Positions 2,343 to 48,769 of a DNA stretch of 64,000 nt are shown here, piece after piece. The DNA comes from a phage. Numbering within the stretch: position 1 is the stretch's first letter; each line of letters opens with the position of its first letter. Below the pieces are notes generated by a model, which did not search any database, was not told the origin of the DNA, and saw only the letters and a program-made list of their open reading frames with translations. Position numbers and translations under genes: made by a program. Where the stretch lies: sequence record PX880102.1; one strand, given 5' to 3'.

Positions 2343-4322
2343 ATGACTTTATTATCTCCGGGCATTGAGCTCAAAGAAACTACGGTTCAAAGCACCGTGG
2401 TTAATAACTCTACTGGTACAGCAGCTTTGGCCGGTAAATTCCAGTGGGGTCCTGCTTTTCAAATTAAACAGGTTACGAATGAAGTAGATTTAGTTAATAC
2501 TTTTGGTCAACCTACAGCTGAAACTGCTGACTATTTTATGTCTGCAATGAATTTCTTACAATACGGAAATGATTTGCGAGTTGTGCGTGCTGTCGATAGA
2601 GATACCGCTAAAAACTCATCTCCGATTGCCGGTAATATTGAATACACTATTTCTACCCCAGGTAGTAACTACGCGGTTGGAGATAAAATCACGGTTAAGT
2701 ATGTTTCAGAAGATGTTGAAACAGAATGTAAAGTTACCGAAGTAGATGCTGATGGAAAAATTAAGAAAATTAATATTCCTACCGCAAAAATTATCGCTAA
2801 AGCGAAAGAAGTAGGCGAATATCCAGCATTAGGTTCTAACTGGACCGCGGAAATTTCTTCGTCTTCCTCTGGTTTAGCTGCAGTAATAACTCTTGGAAAA
2901 ATTATTACTGATTCTGGTATTTTATTAGCTGAAATTGAAAATGCTGAAGCTGCTATGACAGCCGTTGACTTTCAAGCAAATCTCGAAAAATATGGAATTC
3001 CAGGAGTAGTAGCTCTTTATCCAGGCGAGTTGGGCGATAAAATCGAAATTGAAATCGTATCTAAAGCTGACTACGCAAAAGGTGCTTCTGCATTACTTCC
3101 AATTTATCCAGGTGGCGGAACACGCGCATCTACTGCCAAAGCAGTGTTTGGATATGGACCACAAACTGATTCACAATACGCTATCATAGTTCGTCGCAAT
3201 GATGCTATTGTTCAAAGCGTTGTTCTTTCGACAAAGCGAGGTGAAAAAGATATTTACGATAGTAACATCTATATTGACGACTTTTTCGCAAAAGGTGGTT
3301 CAGAATATATTTTCGCAACTGCACAAAACTGGCCAGAAGGCTTCTCTGGAATTTTAACTCTGTCTGGTGGATTATCATCAAATGCTGAAGTAACAGCAGG
3401 AGATTTGATGGAAGCTTGGGACTTCTTTGCTGACCGTGAATCTGTTGATGTTCAGTTGTTTATTGCGGGTTCTTGTGCCGGTGAATCTTTAGAAACAGCA
3501 TCTACTGTCCAAAAACACGTCGTTTCAATTGGGGATGCTCGCCAAGACTGCTTAGTATTATGCTCGCCACCGCGTGAAACTGTAGTTGGAATTCCTGTAA
3601 CTCGTGCTGTTGATAACTTAGTCAATTGGAGAACTGCAGCAGGTTCATACACTGATAATAACTTTAATATCAGTTCAACCTACGCAGCAATTGATGGTAA
3701 CTACAAATATCAGTATGACAAATACAATGATGTCAATCGCTGGGTTCCATTAGCAGCTGATATTGCCGGTTTATGTGCAAGAACCGATAACGTTTCTCAG
3801 ACTTGGATGTCTCCAGCTGGTTATAATCGCGGCCAGATTCTTAACGTTATTAAACTTGCTATTGAAACTCGCCAAGCTCAGCGCGACCGTTTATACCAAG
3901 AAGCTATCAACCCAGTGACTGGTACAGGTGGTGATGGTTACGTATTATATGGTGATAAAACAGCTACTTCTGTTCCTTCTCCATTTGATCGTATTAACGT
4001 TCGTCGTCTGTTTAATATGTTGAAAACGAATATCGGACGTAGTTCAAAATATCGTTTGTTCGAATTAAACAACGCGTTTACTCGTTCATCATTCCGCACA
4101 GAAACTGCCCAATACTTACAGGGAATTAAAGCTCTCGGTGGAATTTATGAATATCGTGTAGTTTGCGATACAACAAATAACACTCCGTCAGTAATTGATA
4201 GAAATGAGTTTGTTGCAACATTCTACATCCAACCTGCGCGCAGTATAAATTATATTACTTTGAATTTCGTCGCAACGGCTACTGGTGCAGATTTCGATGA
4301 GTTAACTGGTCTTGCAGGTTAA
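2343..4322 (+). CDS. 18: Tail sheath protein gp18 (659 aa)
   Basis: 659 aa as in T4 gp18; late promoter TATAAATA 30 bp upstream; synteny. Confidence 0.95.
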   Translation: MTLLSPGIELKETTVQSTVVNNSTGTAALAGKFQWGPAFQIKQVTNEVDLVNTFGQPTAETADYFMSAMNFLQYGNDLRVVRAVDRDTAKNSSPIAGNIEYTISTPGSNYAVGDKITVKYVSEDVETECKVTEVDADGKIKKINIPTAKIIAKAKEVGEYPALGSNWTAEISSSSSGLAAVITLGKIITDSGILLAEIENAEAAMTAVDFQANLEKYGIPGVVALYPGELGDKIEIEIVSKADYAKGASALLPIYPGGGTRASTAKAVFGYGPQTDSQYAIIVRRNDAIVQSVVLSTKRGEKDIYDSNIYIDDFFAKGGSEYIFATAQNWPEGFSGILTLSGGLSSNAEVTAGDLMEAWDFFADRESVDVQLFIAGSCAGESLETASTVQKHVVSIGDARQDCLVLCSPPRETVVGIPVTRAVDNLVNWRTAAGSYTDNNFNISSTYAAIDGNYKYQYDKYNDVNRWVPLAADIAGLCARTDNVSQTWMSPAGYNRGQILNVIKLAIETRQAQRDRLYQEAINPVTGTGGDGYVLYGDKTATSVPSPFDRINVRRLFNMLKTNIGRSSKYRLFELNNAFTRSSFRTETAQYLQGIKALGGIYEYRVVCDTTNNTPSVIDRNEFVATFYIQPARSINYITLNFVATATGADFDELTGLAG

Positions 4323-4357
4323 TACGGTGCATTCTAAAGGCCTGTTTCGGCAGGCCA

Positions 4358-4365
4358 TATAAATA
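4358..4365 (+). promoter_or_regulatory. Late promoter TATAAATA, distal of two upstream of gene 19
   Basis: Exact TATAAATA directly after GGCCTG/CAGGCC hairpin. Confidence 0.6.
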
Positions 4366-4416
4366 CACTATATCCTTAATTCTTTAATTCTATATGCCCT
4401 AGGTTAAACATAGGGA

Positions 4417-4424
4417 TATAAATA
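4417..4424 (+). promoter_or_regulatory. Late promoter TATAAATA, proximal, for gene 19
   Basis: Exact TATAAATA 14 bp upstream of gene 19 ATG. Confidence 0.7.
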
Positions 4425-4438
4425 CTACAGAGGCTAAT

Positions 4439-4930
4439 ATGTTTGTAGATGATGTAACACGAGCGTTTGAATCTGGTGATTTTGCTCGACCTAACTTATT
4501 CCAAGTAGAAATTTCTTATCTTGGACAAAATTTTACGTTTCAATGCAAAGCCACTGCTTTACCAGCTGGTATTGTAGAAAAAATTCCAGTCGGATTTATG
4601 AACCGTAAAATTAACGTAGCAGGCGATCGTACATTCGATGACTGGACTGTTACAGTAATGAACGATGAGGCACATGATGCTCGCCAGAAGTTTGTTGATT
4701 GGCAAAGCATTGCTGCTGGGCAAGGGAACGAAATTACTGGTGGAAAACCAGCAGAGTATAAAAAGAGCGCTGTTGTTCGCCAATACGCTCGTGATGCTAA
4801 AACTGTAACAAAAGAAGTCGAAATTAAAGGCCTGTGGCCTACTAACGTGGGTGAACTTCAATTAGATTGGGATTCAAACAATGAAATCCAAACCTTTGAA
4901 GTAACTCTTGCTCTCGATTATTGGGAATAA
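4439..4930 (+). CDS. 19: Tail tube protein gp19 (163 aa)
   Basis: 163 aa as in T4 gp19; two late promoters upstream; synteny. Confidence 0.95.
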   Translation: MFVDDVTRAFESGDFARPNLFQVEISYLGQNFTFQCKATALPAGIVEKIPVGFMNRKINVAGDRTFDDWTVTVMNDEAHDARQKFVDWQSIAAGQGNEITGGKPAEYKKSAVVRQYARDAKTVTKEVEIKGLWPTNVGELQLDWDSNNEIQTFEVTLALDYWE

Positions 4931-25934: not shown

Positions 25935-25987
25935 CCTCATGTTATGTCAGTAAGACTACTATAACACAACACGAGGGACTTGTAAAC
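25935..25987 (-). promoter_or_regulatory. Early-type promoter (GTTTAC -35, TATAGT -10) plus leader with GAGGA Shine-Dalgarno; copy A of repeated cassette
   Basis: Minus strand GTTTAC-18 nt-TATAGT, then leader ending in GAGGA before ATG at 25926. Confidence 0.6.
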
Positions 25988-28044
25988 TACATCTTGAACT
26001 TTTTAGACATTCCGTTGATGTTAACCAGAGAAGCCAAGATTTGAGAAACTTCGTTTTCCTCTTCTTTTGATTCTTCTACAAGGAATTGATTAAACCCAGC
26101 CATTGGACGAACTTCACCAGTTTCCATTAGATGATCGCCATCATATACTGATTCTTCTAATTGTTCAGAAGGAGGAACGATTGTGCCTTCGATTAGATAC
26201 TTGTTATAAGCAGTTTCTTTCATCATGTACGTGCTTACTTTATTAATCTTCAACAAAATTCCACGCGGTAGAATAACTTCAGCTTCTGATGGAAATCCTG
26301 ATAAATGACCTGGAACGATAACTTTGATTCGCTCAGCCCCTTTAATTACCATACCTACACTAGTTTCAGCATCTTCATTAGCATATGTAGAATGACTACC
26401 CATATGCATTAAATCTTCGGCATCAACGGAACCTTCTCCTTCACCAGAAAATACTGCACCGGAATCATCTAGAGCCATATAGTTTTTACCATGCTCACCG
26501 AAGATATTTGGTTTAAGCGATGTTGATACGAAGTTCTTGAAATAGAACATTTTATTTTCAATATTATGGCGTAAAGTTTTAAAAGTAACTTCTTGACCAC
26601 GATAAAGCGTAGTTCCCGGAGGAAGAACTGATCCTTTGGCGAATGCAGAATCCATTGTCTCGATGTGTTTAATAGCTCGTTCCATGTATTCTTCACGGGT
26701 AGAATCTGGTTTACCCAAGAGGAACGAGTTCATTTCAACATATGAATCTGCACAATAATCTTCAATTGCATCAGACTCAGCCTGAGTCAGTCCTTTTGGA
26801 GTTACTTCGGTGCTTGCGTATTCATATGCCTGAGCAGCAGATTCATTAATCAATTTATAAATGCCATTCATGACAAATTGAATAATAGCTACCTTTTCGT
26901 CTGGTGTGGCTTTAGAACCTTTAACTAAATCATTGATAATTTTCTTAATAACATCAAAGCTATTAGAAATATTAATGTCAGCGAGATCGCTTAAAATTTT
27001 ATCGGTTTTATAATCAAAGAATTCTTTATTCTTTAAATATTCTTGAGAACCTTGATGTGTTATATCGCTCTGCAGTCTGATAGACGGATCACGTAAACGT
27101 GCATGGGCCAATGCAATATGATTTCGGAAGCTTTCTAGTTCATAATCGTTAGATTTAAAACGAGAAGCACTTCTCATACCACCGATAGCTCCTTTGCCGA
27201 AGTTTGAACCAATCTGAATAACGCCAGAGTTCATTGGTCCTTCTGCTTTATATACCGGAACTTTAGATTCAAACTCTTGATATTTCTTAGCAGCGAAGCT
27301 ATCACCCTGTAGCGAAGCATCGACAGTAGAATATTGAGCTTGTGCTGCTAATCGACGACTAATTTTAGTTTTCTGAATAACAGCTTGATCCGTGCGCTTA
27401 TCATTTTCTAAAGCAATAGAAGCAGCAACAGCAACAGCTTTAGGAACAGCATTACCTGTTTTAACATCTACATAAACATCACCAACCTTTGATTCAACTT
27501 TTGTGAATAACTCAGTTGAAATAGGAGGTACACCTGGAATGTCTTCTAAATTGGCATTTTTACGGTAAACCATAATATATGCATACTTTTTATCGTAATC
27601 CCAGATTTCCTTTAAAAGAACATATCGACCTACTCCTTTAGTACGTACTAAACGGTCAGCAATAACTTGCATTTGACGAGCAGCGCCATTTGTTTTACTC
27701 TTTAGTACGCGGAATAGGCATGCGTCAATTTTATACTGTTTCATTGTTTGAAGAGCAGTATCAAAAACTGCATTAATGACACCAATTGGATTTCCACCCA
27801 AGTTTTTAAGTTTAACTAATGATAGTTTCTCATTAACACCTATCATTACGATATGCATCATTTTATCGCCTGGCTTAACGTTTTTATTTGTATCACCGCC
27901 AGAGGTGTATGTACAAAATCTAAATCCAGGAAGCACGCTTTCTTCACCGGCTTGAATAGCAAAAATTTGAGGTATTTTATGCTTAGGATTTAAGTTAACA
28001 ACCGGCGCCGAAGCGCCGTCAAATAATTCTGTAATAAGTTCCAT
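25987..28044 (-). CDS. Alt-family ADP-ribosyltransferase paralog (685 aa)
   Basis: N-terminus MELITELFD and first ~230 aa closely similar to neighbouring Alt; C-terminal R-S-E motifs YRGQ / FVSTSL / EAEVILPRG. Confidence 0.8.
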   Translation of the reverse strand: MELITELFDGASAPVVNLNPKHKIPQIFAIQAGEESVLPGFRFCTYTSGGDTNKNVKPGDKMMHIVMIGVNEKLSLVKLKNLGGNPIGVINAVFDTALQTMKQYKIDACLFRVLKSKTNGAARQMQVIADRLVRTKGVGRYVLLKEIWDYDKKYAYIMVYRKNANLEDIPGVPPISTELFTKVESKVGDVYVDVKTGNAVPKAVAVAASIALENDKRTDQAVIQKTKISRRLAAQAQYSTVDASLQGDSFAAKKYQEFESKVPVYKAEGPMNSGVIQIGSNFGKGAIGGMRSASRFKSNDYELESFRNHIALAHARLRDPSIRLQSDITHQGSQEYLKNKEFFDYKTDKILSDLADINISNSFDVIKKIINDLVKGSKATPDEKVAIIQFVMNGIYKLINESAAQAYEYASTEVTPKGLTQAESDAIEDYCADSYVEMNSFLLGKPDSTREEYMERAIKHIETMDSAFAKGSVLPPGTTLYRGQEVTFKTLRHNIENKMFYFKNFVSTSLKPNIFGEHGKNYMALDDSGAVFSGEGEGSVDAEDLMHMGSHSTYANEDAETSVGMVIKGAERIKVIVPGHLSGFPSEAEVILPRGILLKINKVSTYMMKETAYNKYLIEGTIVPPSEQLEESVYDGDHLMETGEVRPMAGFNQFLVEESKEEENEVSQILASLVNINGMSKKFKM

Positions 28045-28047
28045 GAT

Positions 28048-30144
28048 TTATCCTTGAACGAACTTGTAAGGCATGTTTGCAATATCTATGCAAGATGCAA
28101 TAATTCCAAGAGATGATTCTACTTTTTGTTTAACATTTGATGAAACAAATGATGCAAAATCAACTCTGTCTTCTATTTCAATATCACCTGTCATTGCAAC
28201 TACTTCACCGGTTTCCATTAAATGGTCTCCGTCATAGATTACCGATTCGGTGAGCTCTTCCGTGGTCATAACTTCAGCTTGAATGAGTTTTGTATTATTA
28301 GATGTTGTTCCGTCATTATTAGAAGCATCAGTTATTTTATTAACTTTGACCATCAATCCACGCGGTAGAATAACTTCAGCTTCTGTTGCTATTCCGAGAC
28401 TTCCTGGATATACAACATTAACTTTATGAGCTCCATCAATTGCCCATCCTATTTGAACTTTAACGTATTCAGGATTTTCTTTATACGCTCTTATTTCGTT
28501 TGGATTAATAGTTATTCCTTCTTCATTTTTATCAACTGTTAATTCATTGCGAGCTTCTGGTTCTAAAAGACCAATACCAGCATGTGTGATTCCAAAACGT
28601 CCAAAAATGATAGGAGTTAAAGAAGTAGATACAAAATTTCTGAAGTAGAACACTTTATTTTTAACTAACGCTTCATATATAGGAGCAGTCATACTTTGAG
28701 CACGATAAACTGTAATGCCTTCTGGTATACGGTCACCATTTTCAAAAGCTGAATCTAAGTTATTTATAGCAGATTCAATTTCTTTTTCACTCATTACATC
28801 ATATCGTTCTGGATTGTAACGACCTAAAAGAAGATTATTGATGTCAGTATATCCTGAACCGCAATATTCTCTAATGCCGCGCTTTTGTGATGGAGTATAT
28901 TTAGAACCATCACGGGCAATAGTAATATCAATCATTGGACCTGCACCAATTCCAGAAAAGCTATAAATCATTCGTTTGAGGAATTTAGTTTTTGCTGCGT
29001 TCCAGGAATTTTTAGTTATTTCTTCCCAGACTTCATCTGGCTGTCCTTTACGTGTTTTATTATGTTTATCAAGCCAATTATCTTTATATTCTTCAAAGAG
29101 TTGATTAACAGCTGCTGCGTATTTTTCTAAACATTTTATTGAAGTAGTTGGTTCATTTTTAATCGCATTAAGAATTACATCTTTAATTTTTTCAGAAACT
29201 TCACCAACCTCACTCATTGGAAAGAATTTATAGTCATAATGAAGTTCATCTGCAGTTCCTTCAGCAATAATTTTTGCTGCCTTAGTTTTAGAAGCCAATG
29301 AATTAATTCCAAGTTTCATTTCTTCCGCTTCGGGAATTAAAGGAGCTGTAGCAGGTTTATTGAAATTAGCTGCGGTAGATTCATACTTCTGGAATAATTC
29401 ACTTTCAAATCTAGAAGATTCCAATGACTGACTTTGTGCAATTGCTCTACGGGAAATTTTAACTTTAACGATTACAGCTTGGTCAGAACGTTTATCGTTT
29501 TCTTGTGCAATAGATGCTGCAATTGCCTCATTTTTAGTTACTTGAGCTCCGGTATCTTTATTGATATAAACATCACCGACCTTCGATTCAACTTTAGTAA
29601 AGAGCTCTGTACTAATTTCCGGAACTCCTGGAATGTCTTCTAATGATACATTTTTGCGATGTATAAGAATATATGCGTACTTTTTATCGTAATCCCAGAG
29701 TTCCTTAAGAAGGACGTATCTGCCACCTGAACGACTACGGATAAGTCTATCAGCAATAAGTTGAATTTGACGAGCTTGACCAGCAGTTTTAGACTTAAGA
29801 ATACGGAGCATACAGGCATCAATTTTATACTGACGCATCGTCTGCATCGCAACAGTAAAAACTGAATTGATGTAATTAATTGGGCTTGGACCGAGACCTT
29901 TTAATTTAGCAATTGAACCTTTAGCAGTTAATGTAAAAGGAACAATATGCATCATTTTATCACCCATTTTTAAATCGCGATTAGTATCACCTCCAGATGT
30001 ATAGGTACATAAACGAAAGCCTGGTTGTTCAATTGCGTCATCAACATGAACTGAAAAAATTTGCGGTATTTTCTTCTTTGGATTTAAGTTTGTAATCGGA
30101 AGAGTAGTATCTTCGTCAAATAATTCTGTAATGAGTTCCATCAT
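28048..30144 (-). CDS. alt: Alt ADP-ribosyltransferase (698 aa), packaged head protein
   Basis: Alt-like sequence with YRAQ / FVSTSL / EAEVILPRG motifs; late promoter and Shine-Dalgarno directly upstream; adjacent to ligase gene. Confidence 0.8.
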   Translation of the reverse strand: MMELITELFDEDTTLPITNLNPKKKIPQIFSVHVDDAIEQPGFRLCTYTSGGDTNRDLKMGDKMMHIVPFTLTAKGSIAKLKGLGPSPINYINSVFTVAMQTMRQYKIDACMLRILKSKTAGQARQIQLIADRLIRSRSGGRYVLLKELWDYDKKYAYILIHRKNVSLEDIPGVPEISTELFTKVESKVGDVYINKDTGAQVTKNEAIAASIAQENDKRSDQAVIVKVKISRRAIAQSQSLESSRFESELFQKYESTAANFNKPATAPLIPEAEEMKLGINSLASKTKAAKIIAEGTADELHYDYKFFPMSEVGEVSEKIKDVILNAIKNEPTTSIKCLEKYAAAVNQLFEEYKDNWLDKHNKTRKGQPDEVWEEITKNSWNAAKTKFLKRMIYSFSGIGAGPMIDITIARDGSKYTPSQKRGIREYCGSGYTDINNLLLGRYNPERYDVMSEKEIESAINNLDSAFENGDRIPEGITVYRAQSMTAPIYEALVKNKVFYFRNFVSTSLTPIIFGRFGITHAGIGLLEPEARNELTVDKNEEGITINPNEIRAYKENPEYVKVQIGWAIDGAHKVNVVYPGSLGIATEAEVILPRGLMVKVNKITDASNNDGTTSNNTKLIQAEVMTTEELTESVIYDGDHLMETGEVVAMTGDIEIEDRVDFASFVSSNVKQKVESSLGIIASCIDIANMPYKFVQG

Positions 30145-32105: not shown

Positions 32106-32941
32106 TAGAATGCTCCTTGGAAAATATTATCACCACTAGTAGGTCTATTATACAAATACTCTATGCCACCGGGTTTAATATAGTTCCATGTCTGAAATGG
32201 ATGTGTCTGATATGGATGATATAGATTATAAGGATTAAATCCAGGAGTTCTCCAGGTAGTGTTCCAAGGAAAAGAATCGTTTTTAACCATCTTCTCAATT
32301 ACATCTTTTATAGCTTTTTCACTATCAAAACTTTCTTTATTTTCCTTCGGTGAAAAAAGCTTATTCTCTACATCATTCCATGTATAAACTCGCTGAGCAG
32401 TTTTTGGAATATTGTCACGTTCCCCTCGAGCCATCCAATAAACAGGAACACTTAATATTTCACTCGCATGATCGCAGTGATGAGCGAGATCGTCGATATA
32501 ACAAATTACGTTATATTTCTCTTTTGCCTTTTTGAACAACTCTTCTTTTGAAGAATCATGACCACACATCATTACTTCCGAGAAGGCACCAGGAAAAAGA
32601 GCATTCAAATTAAATTGACGATTCAGCAGAGCGTCAATAGAATCACCCAATGCTGTAACAGCAACAAAATTATAATCTTCTTTTAATTTGTTAATTACAC
32701 ACAGAGCATCTTTATACGGAGACAAGTAACGAATAAAATCTGAACGATTGTATTTTTCAATTAACTTGACACCAAGTTCTTCATCACAATTAAAGAGTTT
32801 ACCAGGAGAAATAAATTTCTCATCCTGGATCATTTTTAAAATATGTTCTAACGGAAGATTATATTTCTGAGCAAAATAAGGAAGGCCTGATTGCCAGCTT
32901 AAACATACTCCATCAATATCAGTTAAAATAGTAGGCTTCAT
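32105..32941 (-). CDS. HAD-superfamily hydrolase-like protein (278 aa)
   Basis: N-terminal HAD motif I LTDIDGV; overlapping start/stop with neighbours. Confidence 0.55.
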   Translation of the reverse strand: MKPTILTDIDGVCLSWQSGLPYFAQKYNLPLEHILKMIQDEKFISPGKLFNCDEELGVKLIEKYNRSDFIRYLSPYKDALCVINKLKEDYNFVAVTALGDSIDALLNRQFNLNALFPGAFSEVMMCGHDSSKEELFKKAKEKYNVICYIDDLAHHCDHASEILSVPVYWMARGERDNIPKTAQRVYTWNDVENKLFSPKENKESFDSEKAIKDVIEKMVKNDSFPWNTTWRTPGFNPYNLYHPYQTHPFQTWNYIKPGGIEYLYNRPTSGDNIFQGAF

Positions 32942-33402
32942 AAAGAGTCTCTTAATAGGTTTAACACATCAATAAATTCAGCTTCGGTTAGTATTGTATC
33001 ATCTTTTGTTAGACCACTAGCCATGCTATGCTTCAAAACTTTTCCTTTCGAGGCTTGTAATGCATCACGAAAGCCCTTGTTTTGGATCGCTGCTTCAAAA
33101 TATGCATTTGTGTATAATTCTTTCCACGCCGGGGAGTATCTTGAAAATGGAACTCCAAGCCAGAAGAGGGTCCCACGGTCCTGAGCTCTAGCATAAGACC
33201 TTCCAGCTTGTTGGGCGGCAAGCCCGGATAACCCAAATATACGACGTTGTTGTTCAACGTTTTTCACCTTGCACCCTTGGAGGAATCCTTCAAGACCTCC
33301 AAATTGAATACCATCCATAACGAAAGGCCAATGGGCGAAATTACTTAATGCACATGATGGCCACCTAAAATTACTTCTAATCTCTAACTCAGACATTTTC
33401 AA
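32938..33402 (-). CDS. NADAR / YbiA-like (DUF1768) domain protein (154 aa)
   Basis: Signature SNFAHWPFVMDG...LEGFLQGCK resembles E. coli YbiA FSNFAAWPIKVDG...SEHYFQAQK. Confidence 0.6.
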   Translation of the reverse strand: MKMSELEIRSNFRWPSCALSNFAHWPFVMDGIQFGGLEGFLQGCKVKNVEQQRRIFGLSGLAAQQAGRSYARAQDRGTLFWLGVPFSRYSPAWKELYTNAYFEAAIQNKGFRDALQASKGKVLKHSMASGLTKDDTILTEAEFIDVLNLLRDSL

Positions 33403-37706: not shown

Positions 37707-37939
37707 AGTACGCCATACACCCTTTGTGCTTCAACTAATCCATCAAAATCCAATTTGAGATGTGTTATTTGGTCACCATCACCTGGATTCACAATTACTA
37801 ATACTGAACGAGGAGTTTCGGTAATAACACGAACCGATGTTTCAGGAAATCGTTCAGAAACCTTATTTACCAATTCCTGAGCAAATAGTTTAACTTTTTC
37901 TTGGAATTCTTTGACAGTAATTGGTTTTTCACTTAGCAT
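37703..37939 (-). CDS. Hypothetical protein (78 aa)
   Basis: ORF with overlap. Confidence 0.5.
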   Translation of the reverse strand: MLSEKPITVKEFQEKVKLFAQELVNKVSERFPETSVRVITETPRSVLVIVNPGDGDQITHLKLDFDGLVEAQRVYGVL

Positions 37940-38463
37940 GTTGATCCCAGCTCCTTACTTTCAACGTTTTTGACTAATTTAACAGAAACTAATTCAGCAT
38001 CTTGTGTAATCATTACCGGGCCTTCTTCATACTCTTCAAGATATTCTAGAGCTTTCTTTTTAGCTTCTTCCTTCGTGTCAGTTTGAGCATAGATATAAAA
38101 CATGCAACCACCAGTAATACCTACTACTTTCCACTTAATTTCTTTATCAGTTTTAATTTCAAATTTACTGACAGAATCATCTTTTTGAACTTCTTCGAAA
38201 AAAGAATATTCTAACATATAAGCAATTGAAAATAGCGGGCTAACTTTATAGGATTCGCCCATTACATCAACAGCTTTATACCAGCGGTCATCAATTTCGC
38301 GTTTAATGCTAATAACATTTTTCGCAGGATCTATTTTTACTTTAAATGAATTTTCCCCAATAAACTGGGCAATTCGTTTATTAGCCCCGCAAGTTTCATT
38401 AAAAATATCTTTATATCCAGCTTTAAAGCGATAAACCTTATCTTCTTCAAACCATTCGCTCAT
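37933..38463 (-). CDS. Hypothetical protein (176 aa)
   Basis: ORF in array. Confidence 0.5.
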   Translation of the reverse strand: MSEWFEEDKVYRFKAGYKDIFNETCGANKRIAQFIGENSFKVKIDPAKNVISIKREIDDRWYKAVDVMGESYKVSPLFSIAYMLEYSFFEEVQKDDSVSKFEIKTDKEIKWKVVGITGGCMFYIYAQTDTKEEAKKKALEYLEEYEEGPVMITQDAELVSVKLVKNVESKELGSTC

Positions 38464-43463: not shown

Positions 43464-44642
43464 TTAAAAATATTTTTTAAAACTCATCATAACTTTATCA
43501 TCAACGTCATTATCAATCTGTGCTACAAGATAAGATGACAGTTCTACTTCTTGTGGCGCGGATTGAACATTATCAGAATTAAGATATTCACGAATCCAAG
43601 GATACGGATGTTTAACCGGAGCATCGGTAATTGGGCATGGAAGACCGCACTGTTTCATACGAGATACAGTTAAGTAATCAATAAAGCTCCACATGCTATT
43701 TGTATTTAATCCAGGAACATCGCCATCTTTAAATAAATGAACTGCCCAGTCTTTTTCTTGGCGGTTAACTTCCATGAAAATATCAACTGCTTCTTGTTCA
43801 CACTCTTGGGCGATTTTAACCCATTCATCACCATCAGTACCAAGTTGAAGTTGACGAATAATATATTGGGTGCCTTTAAGGTGAAGCTGCTCATCACGTG
43901 CAATGAACTTCATAATCTTAGCATTACCTTCCATGATTTCCATGTTCTTATGGAAGTTAAAGGTACATGCGAAAGATACATAAAAACGAATAGCTTCCAA
44001 TGCGTTGATTACGTGCAGGCAGAGGTAAAGAGATTTCATTAGCTCACGCTTCCAATATGTCTCATGCTCAATAGCATCTTCAATAACGTCTTCGTCTGCA
44101 TTAATTTCTTTTTGGTATTCGATATCAGCTTTAGCGTTTTCCCAATAACGAGTTTTAATCAGAACATCATCATAATAACGTCCAATGGATTCAGCACGTT
44201 TCATAATAGCTTCATCTAATACAATTTCATCAAATACCTTCGATGGATCAGTATAAAGATTTCGCATGATATGCGTATATGAACGGCTGTGAATAGTTTC
44301 ACTAAAAGTCCACGTAGCAACCCATGTATCAAGGCTTGGGTCTGAAATTAATGACATAAGTACAGCAGACGGCGCACGACCCTGAATGCTATCCAAAAGT
44401 GATTGATATTTCAGATTATTAGTAAAAATATTTTGCTGATACTGAGGAAGCTTATTAAACTGTGCAGCATCCATCATCAAGTTTACTTCTTCAGGACGCC
44501 AGAAAAATGATAATTGCTTTTCGGTCAAATCTTCAAAAACTTTATGGCGGTGAATATCATAACGCGCAATACCAAGACCTGAACCAAAAAACATAGGTTC
44601 TTTTAAAACATCAACTGGATTTGTATTAAAAACTGTGCTCAT
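43464..44642 (-). CDS. nrdB: Ribonucleotide reductase small subunit NrdB (392 aa), uninterrupted
   Basis: Class Ia R2-like sequence; continuous ORF without intron. Confidence 0.92.
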   Translation of the reverse strand: MSTVFNTNPVDVLKEPMFFGSGLGIARYDIHRHKVFEDLTEKQLSFFWRPEEVNLMMDAAQFNKLPQYQQNIFTNNLKYQSLLDSIQGRAPSAVLMSLISDPSLDTWVATWTFSETIHSRSYTHIMRNLYTDPSKVFDEIVLDEAIMKRAESIGRYYDDVLIKTRYWENAKADIEYQKEINADEDVIEDAIEHETYWKRELMKSLYLCLHVINALEAIRFYVSFACTFNFHKNMEIMEGNAKIMKFIARDEQLHLKGTQYIIRQLQLGTDGDEWVKIAQECEQEAVDIFMEVNRQEKDWAVHLFKDGDVPGLNTNSMWSFIDYLTVSRMKQCGLPCPITDAPVKHPYPWIREYLNSDNVQSAPQEVELSSYLVAQIDNDVDDKVMMSFKKYF

Positions 44643-44693: not shown

Positions 44694-46958
44694 TCATAAT
44701 TTACAGGATGAACAATCTTCAGCTTTTGGAGTTTCTATTTCATAATCATCAGTACCAGAACCATCACGGGTATTATGATAATAGAAATTTTTAATGCCAT
44801 AATACCATCCGTATAGCATGTCATCAATCATTATTGACATTGGAACCTTTCCTTTTGGAAAAATCTGCGGGTCATAGTATGTATTTGCTGAAGCTGATTG
44901 ACATACCCATTTCAGCATAATAGCTACCTGCGTAAGATAAGGTTTATTACCTTTCTTAGCTAATTTCCACGTATAATCATATAGGTCTATGTTATGCTCA
45001 ATATTGGGCACGACTTGATTAAAGGAACCCTCTTTTGATTCTTTAACAGAGACTGGTCCACGTGGAGGCTCGATACCGTTTGTACTGTTAGAAACTTGGG
45101 AAGATGACTCACATGGCATAAGTGCTGATAATGTGCTATTACGGATGCCAAAGAGCTTAAGGTCTTCCCGCAGCGCCGACCAGTCACAAACGTATTTTGG
45201 AGCTGCGATTTGGTCAATCTTTTTATTGTACCAGTCGATAGGTAATTCGCCTCGAGACCAACGAGTGTCTGAATAATATTCGCAAGGTCCTTTTTCTTTG
45301 GCGAGCTTAATGGATGCTTTAATGAGTCCATACTGTAATCTCTCAAATAGTTCATGTGTTAAATCGTTAGCATCTTCATAAGAAGCAAAGTTACTTGCCA
45401 GCCAAGCTGCATAGTTAGTAACACCTACGCCAAGGTTACGACGCTTTTTAGCTTTTTCTGCTTCAGGAACTGGATATCCTTGGTAATCCAAAAGATTATC
45501 AAGAGCACGAACTTGAACTTCTGCCAATTCATTAATTTTATCTTGGTCTTGCCAGTCAAAATTATCTAATACGAATGCAGAGAGAGTACACAATCCAATT
45601 TCAGCATCAGGACTATTCACATCATTTGTTGGAATAGCAATTTCACAGCACAAGTTACTCTGACGAATAGGTGCCTTTTCACGAATAAACGGAGTGTAGT
45701 TATTCGTATTATCAATGAACTGCACATAAATCCTTGCTGTTCCTGAACGTTCAGTCATGAGCAATTCAAATAGTTCACGAGCTTTAATACGCTTTTTACG
45801 AATATTAGGGTCTTTTTCTGCTGCTTCGTATAATTCACGGAAACGGTCTTGGTCTTTAAAATAAGAATAATAAAGCTCTCCACCCATTTCATGTGGACTG
45901 AACAAAGTAATGTAATCATTCTTTCCAAAACGTTCCATCATCAAATCATTCAGCTGAACACCATAATCCATATGACGAATGCGGTTTTCTTCTACGCCTT
46001 TGTTATTTTTCAAAACGAGAAGATTTTCAACTTCCAAATGCCAAATAGGATAATAAGCAGTAGCAGCGCCGCCACGAATTCCACCCTGTGAGCATGATTT
46101 AACTGCAGTCTGAAAATGTTTCCAAAAAGGAATAACACCGGTATGGCGTACTTCACCCATGCCAATCTTAGAACCTTCAGCACGAATCATACCAACGTTA
46201 ATACCAATTCCAGCGCGTTTAGAGATATATTCAACAATTGAAGCAGAAGCCTTATTGATAGACTTCAGTGAATCGCCTGCCTCAATAACAACACATGAAC
46301 TAAACTGTCGAGTCGGAGTACGACAACCAGCCATAATAGGAGTTGGCAATGAAATCTGTCGAGTAGATACTGCTTCATAAAAACGAATAACATGTTTTAA
46401 TCTATCAACAGGTTCATCTTGATGCAATGCCATTCCAATAGTCATAAATGCAAACTGTGGAGTTTCATAAATTTGACCAGTGGTTTTATCTTTAACTAGA
46501 TATTTTTCTTTTAATTGCATCGCCCCGGAATAAGTAAATTCCATATCCCGCTCGTGCTTAATTTTTGATTCTAAAAATGTAATTTCTTCTGCTGAATATT
46601 TTGACAGCAGTTCAGGGTCATATTTACCTTCATTTACACAGTAAGAAATATGGTCAATAAATGAACGTGGTTCATATTGTCCGTAAACATGCTTACGAAG
46701 AGCAAACATTAAACAGCGAGCGGCTACGTATTGATAATCAGGCTCTTCAACTGAAATAGAATTCGCAGCAGCCTTAATTACAATGGTTTGAATGTCATCA
46801 GTGGTCATTCCATCACGGAGATAAGATTTAATATTTTCATATAATTCATAAGGATCTACAGATGTTCCTTCAGCTGCCCAAGATAAAACTTTAATAATTT
46901 TTTGTGGGTCAAAGCTCTGAGAAACACCACTACTTTTGATAACATTAATTAATTGCAT
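44694..46958 (-). CDS. nrdA: Ribonucleotide reductase large subunit NrdA (754 aa)
   Basis: 754 aa as T4 NrdA; N-terminal ATP-cone; C-terminal CxxC tail. Confidence 0.95.
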   Translation of the reverse strand: MQLINVIKSSGVSQSFDPQKIIKVLSWAAEGTSVDPYELYENIKSYLRDGMTTDDIQTIVIKAAANSISVEEPDYQYVAARCLMFALRKHVYGQYEPRSFIDHISYCVNEGKYDPELLSKYSAEEITFLESKIKHERDMEFTYSGAMQLKEKYLVKDKTTGQIYETPQFAFMTIGMALHQDEPVDRLKHVIRFYEAVSTRQISLPTPIMAGCRTPTRQFSSCVVIEAGDSLKSINKASASIVEYISKRAGIGINVGMIRAEGSKIGMGEVRHTGVIPFWKHFQTAVKSCSQGGIRGGAATAYYPIWHLEVENLLVLKNNKGVEENRIRHMDYGVQLNDLMMERFGKNDYITLFSPHEMGGELYYSYFKDQDRFRELYEAAEKDPNIRKKRIKARELFELLMTERSGTARIYVQFIDNTNNYTPFIREKAPIRQSNLCCEIAIPTNDVNSPDAEIGLCTLSAFVLDNFDWQDQDKINELAEVQVRALDNLLDYQGYPVPEAEKAKKRRNLGVGVTNYAAWLASNFASYEDANDLTHELFERLQYGLIKASIKLAKEKGPCEYYSDTRWSRGELPIDWYNKKIDQIAAPKYVCDWSALREDLKLFGIRNSTLSALMPCESSSQVSNSTNGIEPPRGPVSVKESKEGSFNQVVPNIEHNIDLYDYTWKLAKKGNKPYLTQVAIMLKWVCQSASANTYYDPQIFPKGKVPMSIMIDDMLYGWYYGIKNFYYHNTRDGSGTDDYEIETPKAEDCSSCKL

Positions 46959-47275
46959 AAGTCCTCAACTTGAAAATCGTCTTTAAACAATCGGTTAACT
47001 ATATGAGCTATTATATCACCATGACACGGCTTTGGTTTACATGTGCATCCTAGCCTCATTCCACGTAAAGGCTCTAAATGTGCTTTAGTTATTTCTCCGG
47101 ATTTAATTCGACGTATAAAATCTTTTTTGAATAATTCAATGGCAGCCTCCCGGCTGCCAGCATCTTTACCGACGTAATTTCCCCAAAATGTACCACGGTG
47201 AATATTAACATCAAAGTCGGATTTATATTTATTCACTACTCGGCATATACGGCCTGCGCGGTTGTAAGTGTTCAT
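46949..47275 (-). CDS. DUF4326-like small protein (108 aa)
   Basis: C-terminal motif [15 protein letters not shown] typical of DUF4326. Confidence 0.5.
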
Positions 47276-47504
47276 ATTGTTCTTCCGTTAAAACAGTAAT
47301 ATCGTAGTAACAGTCAGAAGAAGTTTTAACTGTGGAAATTTTATTATCAAAATACTCACGAGTCATTTTATGAGTATAATATTTTTTGCCATAAATGATA
47401 ATAGGCTGATTTGGTCCTGGAACTTCTAACTCGCTTGGGTTAGGAAGTGTAAAAAGAACGGCACCAAAAGTATCTTTAAATCGTAAAATCATATATCCTC
47501 TCAA
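47229..47504 (-). CDS. Hypothetical protein (about 87-91 aa)
   Basis: ORF between td and nrdA. Confidence 0.5.
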
Positions 47505-47515
47505 TTAAATTAAAA

Positions 47516-48376
47516 TTATACCGCCATCTTTCCTTTAATTGACGGATGAGATACATAGTTGTTAAGAACAAAATTATGAGGCTTTGCAAATTGACTCAAC
47601 CAAAATACCTGCGATTCTGTGTCCCATTCATCAAATTCATCTGGAAATTTTAATTGTAATTCGCATAAATCCATAGGTTCACGACGTAAAATTTCTTTAC
47701 ATTGTTCTACGTGATTCATATAGATATGAGTATTACCACCAGAAAATATCAAATCTCCAGGAATAAGATTACACATTTTAGCTACAATATGAACTAACGT
47801 AGCATATGATGCAATATTAAATGGAAGACCGAGGAAAACATCTACCGAACGTTGATACCACTGCAAATCTAAATAGCCATTACGCACATTAAACTGATAG
47901 AACATATGGCAAGGCGGTAATGCCATATATTTAAGTTCAGCTGGATTCCATGCAGAAACAATTTGACGCCTATCATTTGGCAATTTTTTAATACGATCAA
48001 CAACTTCTATAATTTGGTCTACACCGCCAAAATCACGCCATTGTTTTCCATAAATTGGACCAAGTTCACCGCTATGGTATCCTAAATCTTTTGCTTGATT
48101 TTCGTAATTTTCATCCCAAACTGTTTTGCCTTGGATTAACGAATCATGTTGAATTAATCGTAAATCATTGACATTTGTGCTTCCTGATAAAAACCATATT
48201 AGCTCAGCAATGCATGCATTCCAGGCGAGCTTTTTAGTTGTTACTGCAGGAAAGCCTTTAGTTAAATCCCAACGCAATTTAGTACCGAACAGAGCAATTG
48301 TTCCTGTGCCCGTTCGGTCATCGGTTTCATAGCCATTTTCAAAAATGTCTTTAATTAAATCTTGGTATTGTTTCAT
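47516..48376 (-). CDS. td: Thymidylate synthase (286 aa), uninterrupted
   Basis: 286 aa ThyA-like, active-site region LPPCH; continuous ORF without intron. Confidence 0.95.
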   Translation of the reverse strand: MKQYQDLIKDIFENGYETDDRTGTGTIALFGTKLRWDLTKGFPAVTTKKLAWNACIAELIWFLSGSTNVNDLRLIQHDSLIQGKTVWDENYENQAKDLGYHSGELGPIYGKQWRDFGGVDQIIEVVDRIKKLPNDRRQIVSAWNPAELKYMALPPCHMFYQFNVRNGYLDLQWYQRSVDVFLGLPFNIASYATLVHIVAKMCNLIPGDLIFSGGNTHIYMNHVEQCKEILRREPMDLCELQLKFPDEFDEWDTESQVFWLSQFAKPHNFVLNNYVSHPSIKGKMAV

Positions 48377-48421: not shown

Positions 48422-48769
48422 TCAATACGGTTTAGCATCAAATTTTCTCTCAATTTCAGGCGTGAAATATAATTCTTTACCACGTTTGGAAAAGCGACCA
48501 ATAATATGATAATTATTCTCATCAAACGTGATATTACCAATATCCATAGCTTTCAACCAAATATCAATATTTCTATCCAGTTTTATGTCAAAATTCCAAT
48601 ACGGAGAACTATTACCGAAAATACTGCAAGCGGATTCAGTGAAACAACTGCTATAAATCTTGTCTTTAGGAACTACTAATTGATAGACACCTTTAATAAA
48701 CTGAGGACCCTGCCACTTTGGCTGTTTCTCGTCTTTTTCTAATAGAATAGGGTAATAATTAAAATTCAT
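48422..48769 (-). CDS. Hypothetical protein (115 aa) inserted between frd and td
   Basis: ORF with no recognisable motifs; occupies a junction that in T4 is a direct frd/td overlap. Confidence 0.5.
   Translation of the reverse strand: MNFNYYPILLEKDEKQPKWQGPQFIKGVYQLVVPKDKIYSSCFTESACSIFGNSSPYWNFDIKLDRNIDIWLKAMDIGNITFDENNYHIIGRFSKRGKELYFTPEIERKFDAKPY

Follow-up and report, generated by a model that had tools for sequence, protein, structure and literature searches.

The nrdA.1 gene of a T4-type phage: a stand-alone DUF4326 protein, its genomic settings and its candidate functions

The NrdA.1 protein of bacteriophage T4 (NP_049846.1) has 108 amino acid residues and a mass of 12.4 kDa, is encoded in the nrdA-td region, and is annotated as a hypothetical protein. 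The DUF4326 family has been placed in the rhodanese-phosphatase superfamily, and comparative genomics has connected it with NAD/ADP-ribose domains; the published associations include those with SLOG, Macro, and NADAR (Iyer, Burroughs, Aravind 2021/2022; PMC9503650, PMC7824862). A 2025 preprint reports that ORF83, a phage protein of the SLOG/LOG-like type that consists of SLOG only, blocks type III Avs, and that giant-virus homologs of ORF83 bear a C-terminal DUF4326 domain.

In the present study, we analyzed a 64,000-nucleotide stretch of phage DNA (sequence record PX880102.1, referred to as the window), in which an open reading frame (ORF) of 108 codons plus a stop codon lies at 46949-47275 on the minus strand. 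The original prediction, made from the letters of the window, had described this ORF as DUF4326-like, had stated that bacterial genomes often encode the domain in fusion with, or next to, NADAR domains, and had counted the ORF as one of four ADP-ribosylation-related genes scattered over the window. We found that the ORF is nrdA.1 and that its product belongs to DUF4326, and the family-wide survey indicated that NADAR is a minor partner of the domain. Nothing in the gene assignment goes beyond the existing annotation and literature, as T4 nrdA.1 is an annotated gene, DUF4326 is a Pfam family, and the association with SLOG, Macro, and NADAR has been described.

NrdA.1 as a DUF4326 protein

Judged by its sequence and position, the ORF is the ortholog of T4 nrdA.1 in a T4-type phage (Tequatrovirus). 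Both proteins have 108 residues, share 94% identity, and are encoded at the same place between nrdA.2 and nrdA. The six substitutions all fall in residues 2-10, that is, in the stretch that overlaps nrdA.2. The order td - nrdA.2 - nrdA.1 - nrdA, with overlaps of 47 and 10 nucleotides, is also the same in the two phages.

The protein matched the Pfam DUF4326 profile (PF14216) with an E-value of 5.5e-22 and 78.7 bits (the gathering cut-off is 25 bits) over positions 1-81 of the 82 positions of the profile, and it matched PHROG 464 ('unknown function') with an E-value of 8.7e-49. With this full-length profile match, all the signature residues, and a predicted fold that matches the family, NrdA.1 is to be classed as a true stand-alone DUF4326 protein, and the motif that the original prediction had recognized is located at residues 75-89. 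The label 'ribonucleotide reductase NrdA-like' of a related PHROG group (phrog_24867) looks like a transferred name and was not used as evidence. The elements of the coding sequence are as follows.

46949-47275, minus strand: nrdA.1 coding sequence, stand-alone DUF4326 protein of 108 residues plus stop codon (ORF list, PF14216, PHROG 464)
47009-47053, minus strand: signature G-C-x-C-x-P-x-x-C-H-G-D, codons 75-89 (conservation, and DSSP assignment of the AlphaFold2 model)
47174-47245, minus strand: N-terminal conserved block (VVN, D22, I25, R27, G32, N33), codons 11-34 (column statistics, alignment)

Residue conservation was studied in the nearest cluster representatives, which contributed 150 DUF4326 domains. 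C77, C79, P81, C84, H85, G86, and D87 were conserved in 93-100% of the domains, and the four potential ligands C77, C79, C84, and H85 in 99-100%; the wider set of residues conserved at about 82-100% consists of these seven and V13, V14, N15, D22, I25, R27, G32, N33, R42, L70, L75, and G76. The signature residues were invariant or nearly so in three separate family alignments (A1, A3, and A8). NrdA.1 retains every family-wide residue (N15, D22, R27, N33, R42, and C77-x-C79-x-P81-x-x-C84-H85-G-D87), and its departures are GNY instead of the usual GNP, with Tyr after G32-N33, and IHRG instead of the usual IGRG, with His before R27. C11 is conserved in T4-like phages only. From this conservation pattern, the signature loop is presumed to be an active site or a ligand- or metal-binding site.

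The family is very large. A profile of 32 T4-like orthologs, searched against 1.84 billion cluster representatives, retrieved 10,071 of them at E<=1e-3, and tblastn found a NrdA.1 homolog in 1,976 of 50,697 phage records (roughly 4%). DUF4326 occurs in phages, archaeal viruses, giant viruses, bacteria, and archaea; among the phages, it is common in Ackermannviridae, Pakpunavirus, and others. Some metagenomic proteins (P0084, P0089, P0195, and P0191) carry two or three DUF4326 domains in tandem, for example, three within 352 residues or two within a protein of 1,411 residues.

The AlphaFold2 model of NrdA.1, calculated with the ortholog alignment, had a mean predicted local distance difference test score (pLDDT) of 88.3 and a predicted template modeling score (pTM) of 0.80; the protein is thereby confidently predicted to fold as a small alpha/beta domain. 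According to DSSP, the model contains a strand at residues 12-15, helices at 36-39, 42-59, and 64-70, a second strand at 74-77, and helices at 85-96 and 103-107. The Cys-rich motif begins at the end of strand 74-77, continues through a seven-residue loop (78-84), and enters helix 85-96. In the model, this strand-loop-helix order fits the active-site layout of Cys-phosphatases and rhodaneses, a group that includes PTP, DUSP, and Cdc25 and has a C-X5-R loop, the comparison being one of secondary-structure order.

A Foldseek search of the BFVD database with the model gave 11 matches at E<=1e-3, eight of which are named DUF4326, with query-normalized TM-scores (TMq) of 0.39-0.84. The DUF4326 matches came from phages, haloarchaeal viruses, pandoraviruses, pithoviruses, and marseilleviruses, and a Marseillevirus protein named 'NADAR with phosphatase' was also among the structural matches; DUF488 appeared in this search with an E-value of 1.4. 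The Foldseek search of the PDB gave no match, and single-protein and profile sequence searches against all PDB chains gave nothing meaningful. The best solved structural neighbor of NrdA.1 is RapZ-C, but the resemblance to solved structures is weak. In a profile-profile comparison with DUF488 (hhalign), the conserved motifs lined up as expected, LGCxCxPxxCHG with LLCSExxPxxCHR, at low support (E-value 0.005, probability 7%), and the position of C79 is occupied by Glu in DUF488. Sequence and fold searches revealed no likeness to known zinc-finger families. Burroughs and Aravind are said to have recognized, in 2023, a clade of RapZ-C, DUF488, and DUF4326 within the rhodanese-phosphatase superfamily. 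Our results from the sequence and the model are compatible with the rhodanese-phosphatase assignment and do not independently establish it.

The nrdA.1 locus

The ORF, which is on the minus strand and has an ATG start codon, lies between nrdA and td exactly as the original prediction had placed it, and nrdA.2 also lies between the ORF and td. In the direction of transcription, the genes are td, nrdA.2, nrdA.1, nrdA, and nrdB.

47516-48376, minus strand: td (ORF list, RB51 annotation)
47229-47492, minus strand: nrdA.2, 87 residues, DUF5496, directly upstream of nrdA.1 (PF17600, E-value 2e-52; T4/RB51 annotation)
47273-47286, minus strand: ATG start codon of nrdA.1 (47275-47273) with a weak Shine-Dalgarno-like GGAAG (47286-47282) and a six-nucleotide spacer (sequence; same arrangement in T4)
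46949-46966, minus strand: 3' end of nrdA.1, GAG GAC TTA TGC AAT TAA (read directly from the sequence)
44694-46958, minus strand: nrdA, ribonucleotide reductase (RNR) large subunit, directly downstream of nrdA.1 (ORF list, annotation of close relatives)
43464-44642, minus strand: nrdB (ORF list, RB51 annotation)

At its start, nrdA.1 shares 47 nucleotides with the 3' end of nrdA.2. In the RB51 record, the gene begins at a GTG codon and encodes 95 residues; we rejected this start, which removes the conserved N-terminal strand xRVVN that opens the Pfam profile. The reading of 108 residues is preferred because T4 is annotated with 108 residues, because the identity of the two proteins is 94%, and because the conserved strand is lost with the GTG start.

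At the other end, the Shine-Dalgarno sequence GAGGA (46966-46962) and the ATG (46958-46956) of nrdA are located inside the last codons of nrdA.1, and the resulting overlap of 10 nucleotides is identical in T4 and RB51. Because the ribosome-binding site and the start of nrdA lie within the end of nrdA.1, the two genes are probably translationally coupled. The same signals coincide with the codons of the C-terminal tail ..VEDLCN (46949-46966). The tail '..IEDL..' is kept in those T4-like NrdA.1 proteins whose genes precede nrdA, and it differs in the Aeromonas-phage copies that precede denA. Since the start signals of nrdA overlap the tail, its conservation in the former is probably due to these translation signals rather than to protein function. 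Promoter and terminator scans around nrdA.1 gave results at chance level. The 25 Tequatrovirus genomes that best match the region 46500-48000 are 96.9-98.6% identical to it over its full length, and 476 phage records cover 80% or more of it.

The position of nrdA.1 next to an RNR gene is not general. The gene directly precedes nrdA in Tequatrovirus and in T4-like phages of Klebsiella and Acinetobacter. One Klebsiella phage of the Slopekvirus-like type has it downstream of nrdB and ahead of denA-rnlA, and Aeromonas phage Aes508 has the ortholog between td and denA-rnlA-...-pseT, at a place without an RNR gene. The homolog in Vi01-like phages is beside a gp46/47-type recombination nuclease, the DUF4326 gene of one Pakpunavirus is near an RNA ligase, and a metagenomic homolog with 49% identity is beside a DNA polymerase and ThyX. 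In these arrangements, what stays constant around nrdA.1 is a block of early genes for nucleotide metabolism, replication, and repair, and neither RNR itself nor the region of alt and 30.3.

Partners of DUF4326 and possible functions of NrdA.1

Fusions were counted in the 149 nearest cluster representatives. About two-thirds of them are stand-alone proteins like NrdA.1, and the remaining third, as well as half of the bacterial ORFs sampled below, are longer multi-domain forms. The fusion partners were mSLOG (seven), YAcAr (six), DprA (four), NADAR (four, and one further NADAR-DarT1), Macro (one), TIR (one), and RNase H (one); SLOG-type fusions thus numbered 17, compared with the four (plus one) that contain NADAR. 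NADAR was found on either side of DUF4326, and because both domain orders exist, NADAR-DUF4326 fusions arose more than once.

Loci were sampled with a degenerate DNA pattern that encodes the signature G-C-x-C-x-P-x-x-C-H-G-D, and its specificity was 97-98%: 116 of 120 viral contigs and 118 of 120 bacterial or archaeal contigs were confirmed as DUF4326, and 390 and 148 neighboring ORFs, respectively, were collected from them. The greedy choice of neighboring ORFs sometimes took one on the opposite strand (for example, in locus L014); all ORFs were also searched with local hidden Markov models (HMMs). The viral neighbors included RNR, thymidylate synthase, DNA methylases, RNase H/5'-3' exonuclease, T4 RNA ligase 1, RtcB, DUF488, DNA polymerases, one Macro protein, and one thioredoxin. 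Within the flanks on the sampled contigs, and as far as a local NADAR HMM of limited sensitivity could detect, a NADAR gene was near DUF4326 in two of the 116 viral loci and in none of the 118 bacterial or archaeal loci, and NADAR was not among the top families of either set of neighbors. Among the 62 bacterial or archaeal ORFs of at least 150 residues, mSLOG::DUF4326 accounted for 30 and NADAR for none. The frequent fusion and adjacency to NADAR in bacteria, claimed in the original prediction, were therefore not borne out; the link of the family to ADP-ribose is real and published, and the special tie to NADAR is weak.

In bacteria, the arrangement DuOB - DUF488 - mSLOG::DUF4326, in which DuOB stands for a dual OB-fold protein, was found in 25 loci. 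In a second arrangement, found in 16 loci, DUF4326 is followed by a YAcAr/SLOG protein of 317 residues, and in 15 loci, which may in part be the same ones, a cluster of the single-stranded DNA-binding protein (SSB) type lies upstream of DUF4326. By these counts, the main partners of DUF4326 are SLOG domains, and single-stranded DNA (ssDNA)-binding OB-fold proteins (DuOB, SSB) are as prominent as ADP-ribose domains. In these samples, the dominant partners are SLOG domains, DuOB/SSB, and DUF488, with NADAR as a minor one.

An example of the first arrangement is the operon at 3130-4696 of locus L145 (Pseudomonas petrae, NZ_JAKJXE010000011.1), with counterparts in the 24 other bacterial loci; the gene that follows the operon in this locus is the Lamassu gene LmuB. 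Its DuOB and DUF488 genes are recognized by the models of PDC-M45, a candidate defense system in PADLOC (E-values 5e-37 and 3e-68), and the mSLOG::DUF4326 gene itself matched no PADLOC model. The DUF4326 domain of this operon is the same as that of NrdA.1 and has the same conserved residues. However, it is fused to SLOG, is partnered with an ssDNA-binding OB-fold protein, and is often located in defense islands, whereas T4 nrdA.1 has no SLOG, DuOB, or DUF488 partner nearby.

In the bacterial chromosome OZ241875.1, a metagenome-assembled genome, the DUF4326 motif occurs at no fewer than six separate places (L177, L179, L181, L197, L199, and L204). In at least three of these (L177, L179, and L197), DUF4326 is followed by a gene of the 317-residue YAcAr/SLOG cluster, a recurrence that suggests a repeated and possibly mobile module.

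The other three genes that the original prediction had grouped with nrdA.1 do exist in the window.

25987-28044, minus strand: alt.-2, Alt-type ADP-ribosyltransferase (PF03496, E-value 8.5e-21; RB51 gene name)
28048-30144, minus strand: alt, Alt-type ADP-ribosyltransferase (PF03496, E-value 9.8e-38; RB51 gene name)
32938-33396, minus strand: gp30.3, NADAR-like (PF08010)

The product of gp30.3 matched the NADAR profile in hhalign with a probability of 78.5% and an E-value of 1.7e-5 over the LSNF..E..Q..K..GR motifs, a Vibrio-phage homolog matched the same profile at 2.3e-7, and a 100% identical protein of phage Shinka is annotated as 'NADAR domain containing protein'; our four-sequence local NADAR HMM did not detect it. 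NADAR genes have been reported to be expressed with ADP-ribosyltransferases in T4-like phages (Iyer et al. 2022). The distance from nrdA.1 is 13.5 kb to gp30.3 and 17-21 kb to alt and alt.-2, with many unrelated genes between. The four genes are scattered, as had been noted, and form a loose grouping; a linkage of nrdA.1 to the NADAR-like and ADP-ribosyltransferase genes was not seen in this genome, where nrdA.1 is instead embedded in, and overlaps, genes for nucleotide precursors.

What NrdA.1 does has to be weighed from the conserved residues, the model, and the partners. We tentatively favor the reading that NrdA.1 is a small, early-made, thiol-dependent enzyme whose target is a phosphate carried by ribose or deoxyribose; this phosphate would belong to a small molecule derived from nucleotides or to the end of a nucleic acid. 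Three observations lead us to this reading: Arg, Asn, and Asp residues are conserved, the Cys-loop is placed where a strand gives way to a helix, and the domain has repeatedly been fused to enzymes that cleave or bind nucleotides or ADP-ribose (SLOG, NADAR, Macro, TIR, and RNase H). The enzyme would be of the rhodanese/Cys-phosphatase type of the RapZ-C/DUF488/DUF4326 clade; its conserved Arg, Asn, and Asp residues would hold an anionic phospho-sugar, and it would take off or transfer the phosphate attached to the ribose or deoxyribose. The substrate may be ADP-ribose, its phosphorylated breakdown products, or the products of SLOG, Macro, or NADAR enzymes; a nucleic-acid end is the other option. 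In T4-type phages, NrdA.1 would be made before replication starts, alongside the enzymes for nucleotide precursors. Predictions of the same kind have been published for DUF4326 (PMC9503650, PMC7824862). Several points weigh against an enzyme. The literature searched contained no experimental study of any DUF4326 protein; RapZ-C, the best structural match, is a domain that binds ligands and RNA and is not known to be an enzyme; the three Cys and the His, all within a span of nine residues, could just as well make up a metal site; and Pro34, otherwise conserved at 90% or more, is Tyr in the Tequatrovirus copies. In addition, because the contexts of DUF4326 are heterogeneous, the substrate cannot be narrowed down.

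Some of these points lead to a rather unlikely but serious alternative, in which NrdA.1 is a non-catalytic binding module, with zinc at C77/C79/C84/H85 or with a phospho-sugar or nucleotide ligand, that serves as a sensor, an adaptor, or a nucleic-acid binder. The near-invariance of four potential metal ligands within nine residues fits this alternative, as do the binding of glucosamine 6-phosphate (GlcN6P) by RapZ-C, the frequent partnership with the ssDNA-binding proteins DuOB and SSB, and the Glu of DUF488 at the position of C79, which is also a possible metal ligand. However, Arg27, Arg42, Asn15, Asn33, Asp22, and Asp87 are conserved outside the Cys cluster and point to a substrate pocket, and repeated independent fusions to enzymes (SLOG, NADAR, Macro, and RNase H) are typical of consecutive catalytic steps. 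Moreover, adjacent Cys and His residues rarely ligate the same metal, and Cys84 and His85 are such a pair.

A dedicated partnership with gp30.3 and Alt in a phage cycle of ADP-ribosylation and de-ADP-ribosylation, for example, to clear the ADP-ribose released by NADAR, seems improbable to us. It would agree with the NADAR-DUF4326 fusions in both orders, the two viral loci with an adjoining NADAR gene, the match of the Marseillevirus 'NADAR with phosphatase' protein to the model, and the published prediction that connects DUF4326 with NAD/ADP-ribose domains. Nearly all Straboviridae also have both gp30.3 and nrdA.1, but this co-occurrence says little about shared function because any pair of conserved T4 genes would be expected to show it. 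NADAR is present in only 3% of the nearest representatives and in none of the bacterial loci, and in the window, the genes belong to different blocks 13.5-21 kb apart. Salmonella, Pseudomonas, and Erwinia, the host genera of Ackermannviridae, Pakpunavirus, and other phages in which DUF4326 is common, are outside the ten commonest host genera of gp30.3 homologs. An accessory role for RNR or for the T4 complex that synthesizes deoxynucleoside triphosphates, such as a thiol-disulfide relay, is very improbable, even though nrdA.1 overlaps nrdA and carries its ribosome-binding site, adjoins nrdA or nrdB in the T4-like phages listed above, has RNR genes in the sampled flanks of 8 of the 116 viral loci, and has one thioredoxin among its neighbors. 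We gave this role a low weight because the gene order is kept in a subset of Straboviridae only and is lost in Aes508, in the Vi01-like phages, and around the 49%-identical homolog beside DNA polymerase and ThyX. In agreement, phmmer with nrdA and nrdB of the window found no RNR homolog in the sampled flanks of bacterial DUF4326 loci, and the PHROG name 'NrdA-like' looks, as mentioned above, like name transfer.

If NrdA.1 is an enzyme, as we tentatively favor, a broader and more doubtful proposal may be made. T4 NrdA.1 might be a tractable prototype of an enzyme class not yet characterized, a minimal Cys-loop domain that removes or transfers the ribose-linked phosphate of ADP-ribose-derived immune signals or of damaged nucleic-acid ends and so serves phage counter-defense, which would pair it with the same domain in the bacterial candidate defense operon (DuOB-DUF488-mSLOG::DUF4326, PDC-M45-like). 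At stake is the biochemistry of a family with about 10,000 cluster representatives that is found in about 4% of phage records, in giant and archaeal viruses, and in bacterial defense-island operons, and T4 is an easy genetic and biochemical system in which to solve the function of DUF4326. The corrected emphasis on NADAR also bears on experimental design: SLOG-type nucleotide-processing partners and ssDNA-binding proteins should come first, and, in phages, the neighborhoods of nucleotide metabolism and of RNA and DNA repair.

Minor observations on the window and its relatives

Both td and nrdB of the window are intron-free, whereas both genes of T4 contain group I introns (I-TevI, I-TevIII). 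Unlike T4, the window also lacks mobE and nrdB.1 between nrdA and nrdB. An ORF of 115 residues at 48422-48769 on the minus strand, between td and frd, has no Pfam match; it is the counterpart of RB32ORF229c, is described in the RB51 record as 'flanked by 9 bp repeat', and may be an inserted gene.

In Vibrio phage PVA23 (L253, 2657-3471), the gp30.3 homolog adjoins a 5'(3')-deoxyribonucleotidase gene, followed by gp47/46-type nuclease genes. A 'putative 12.4 kDa protein' encoded beside this gp30.3 homolog was considered as a NrdA.1 protein and was rejected, as it does not match DUF4326. Elsewhere in the window, an ORF of 176 residues on the minus strand (37933-38463), which has no Pfam match, lies between cd.2 and cd.3, at a place where RB51 has no gene.

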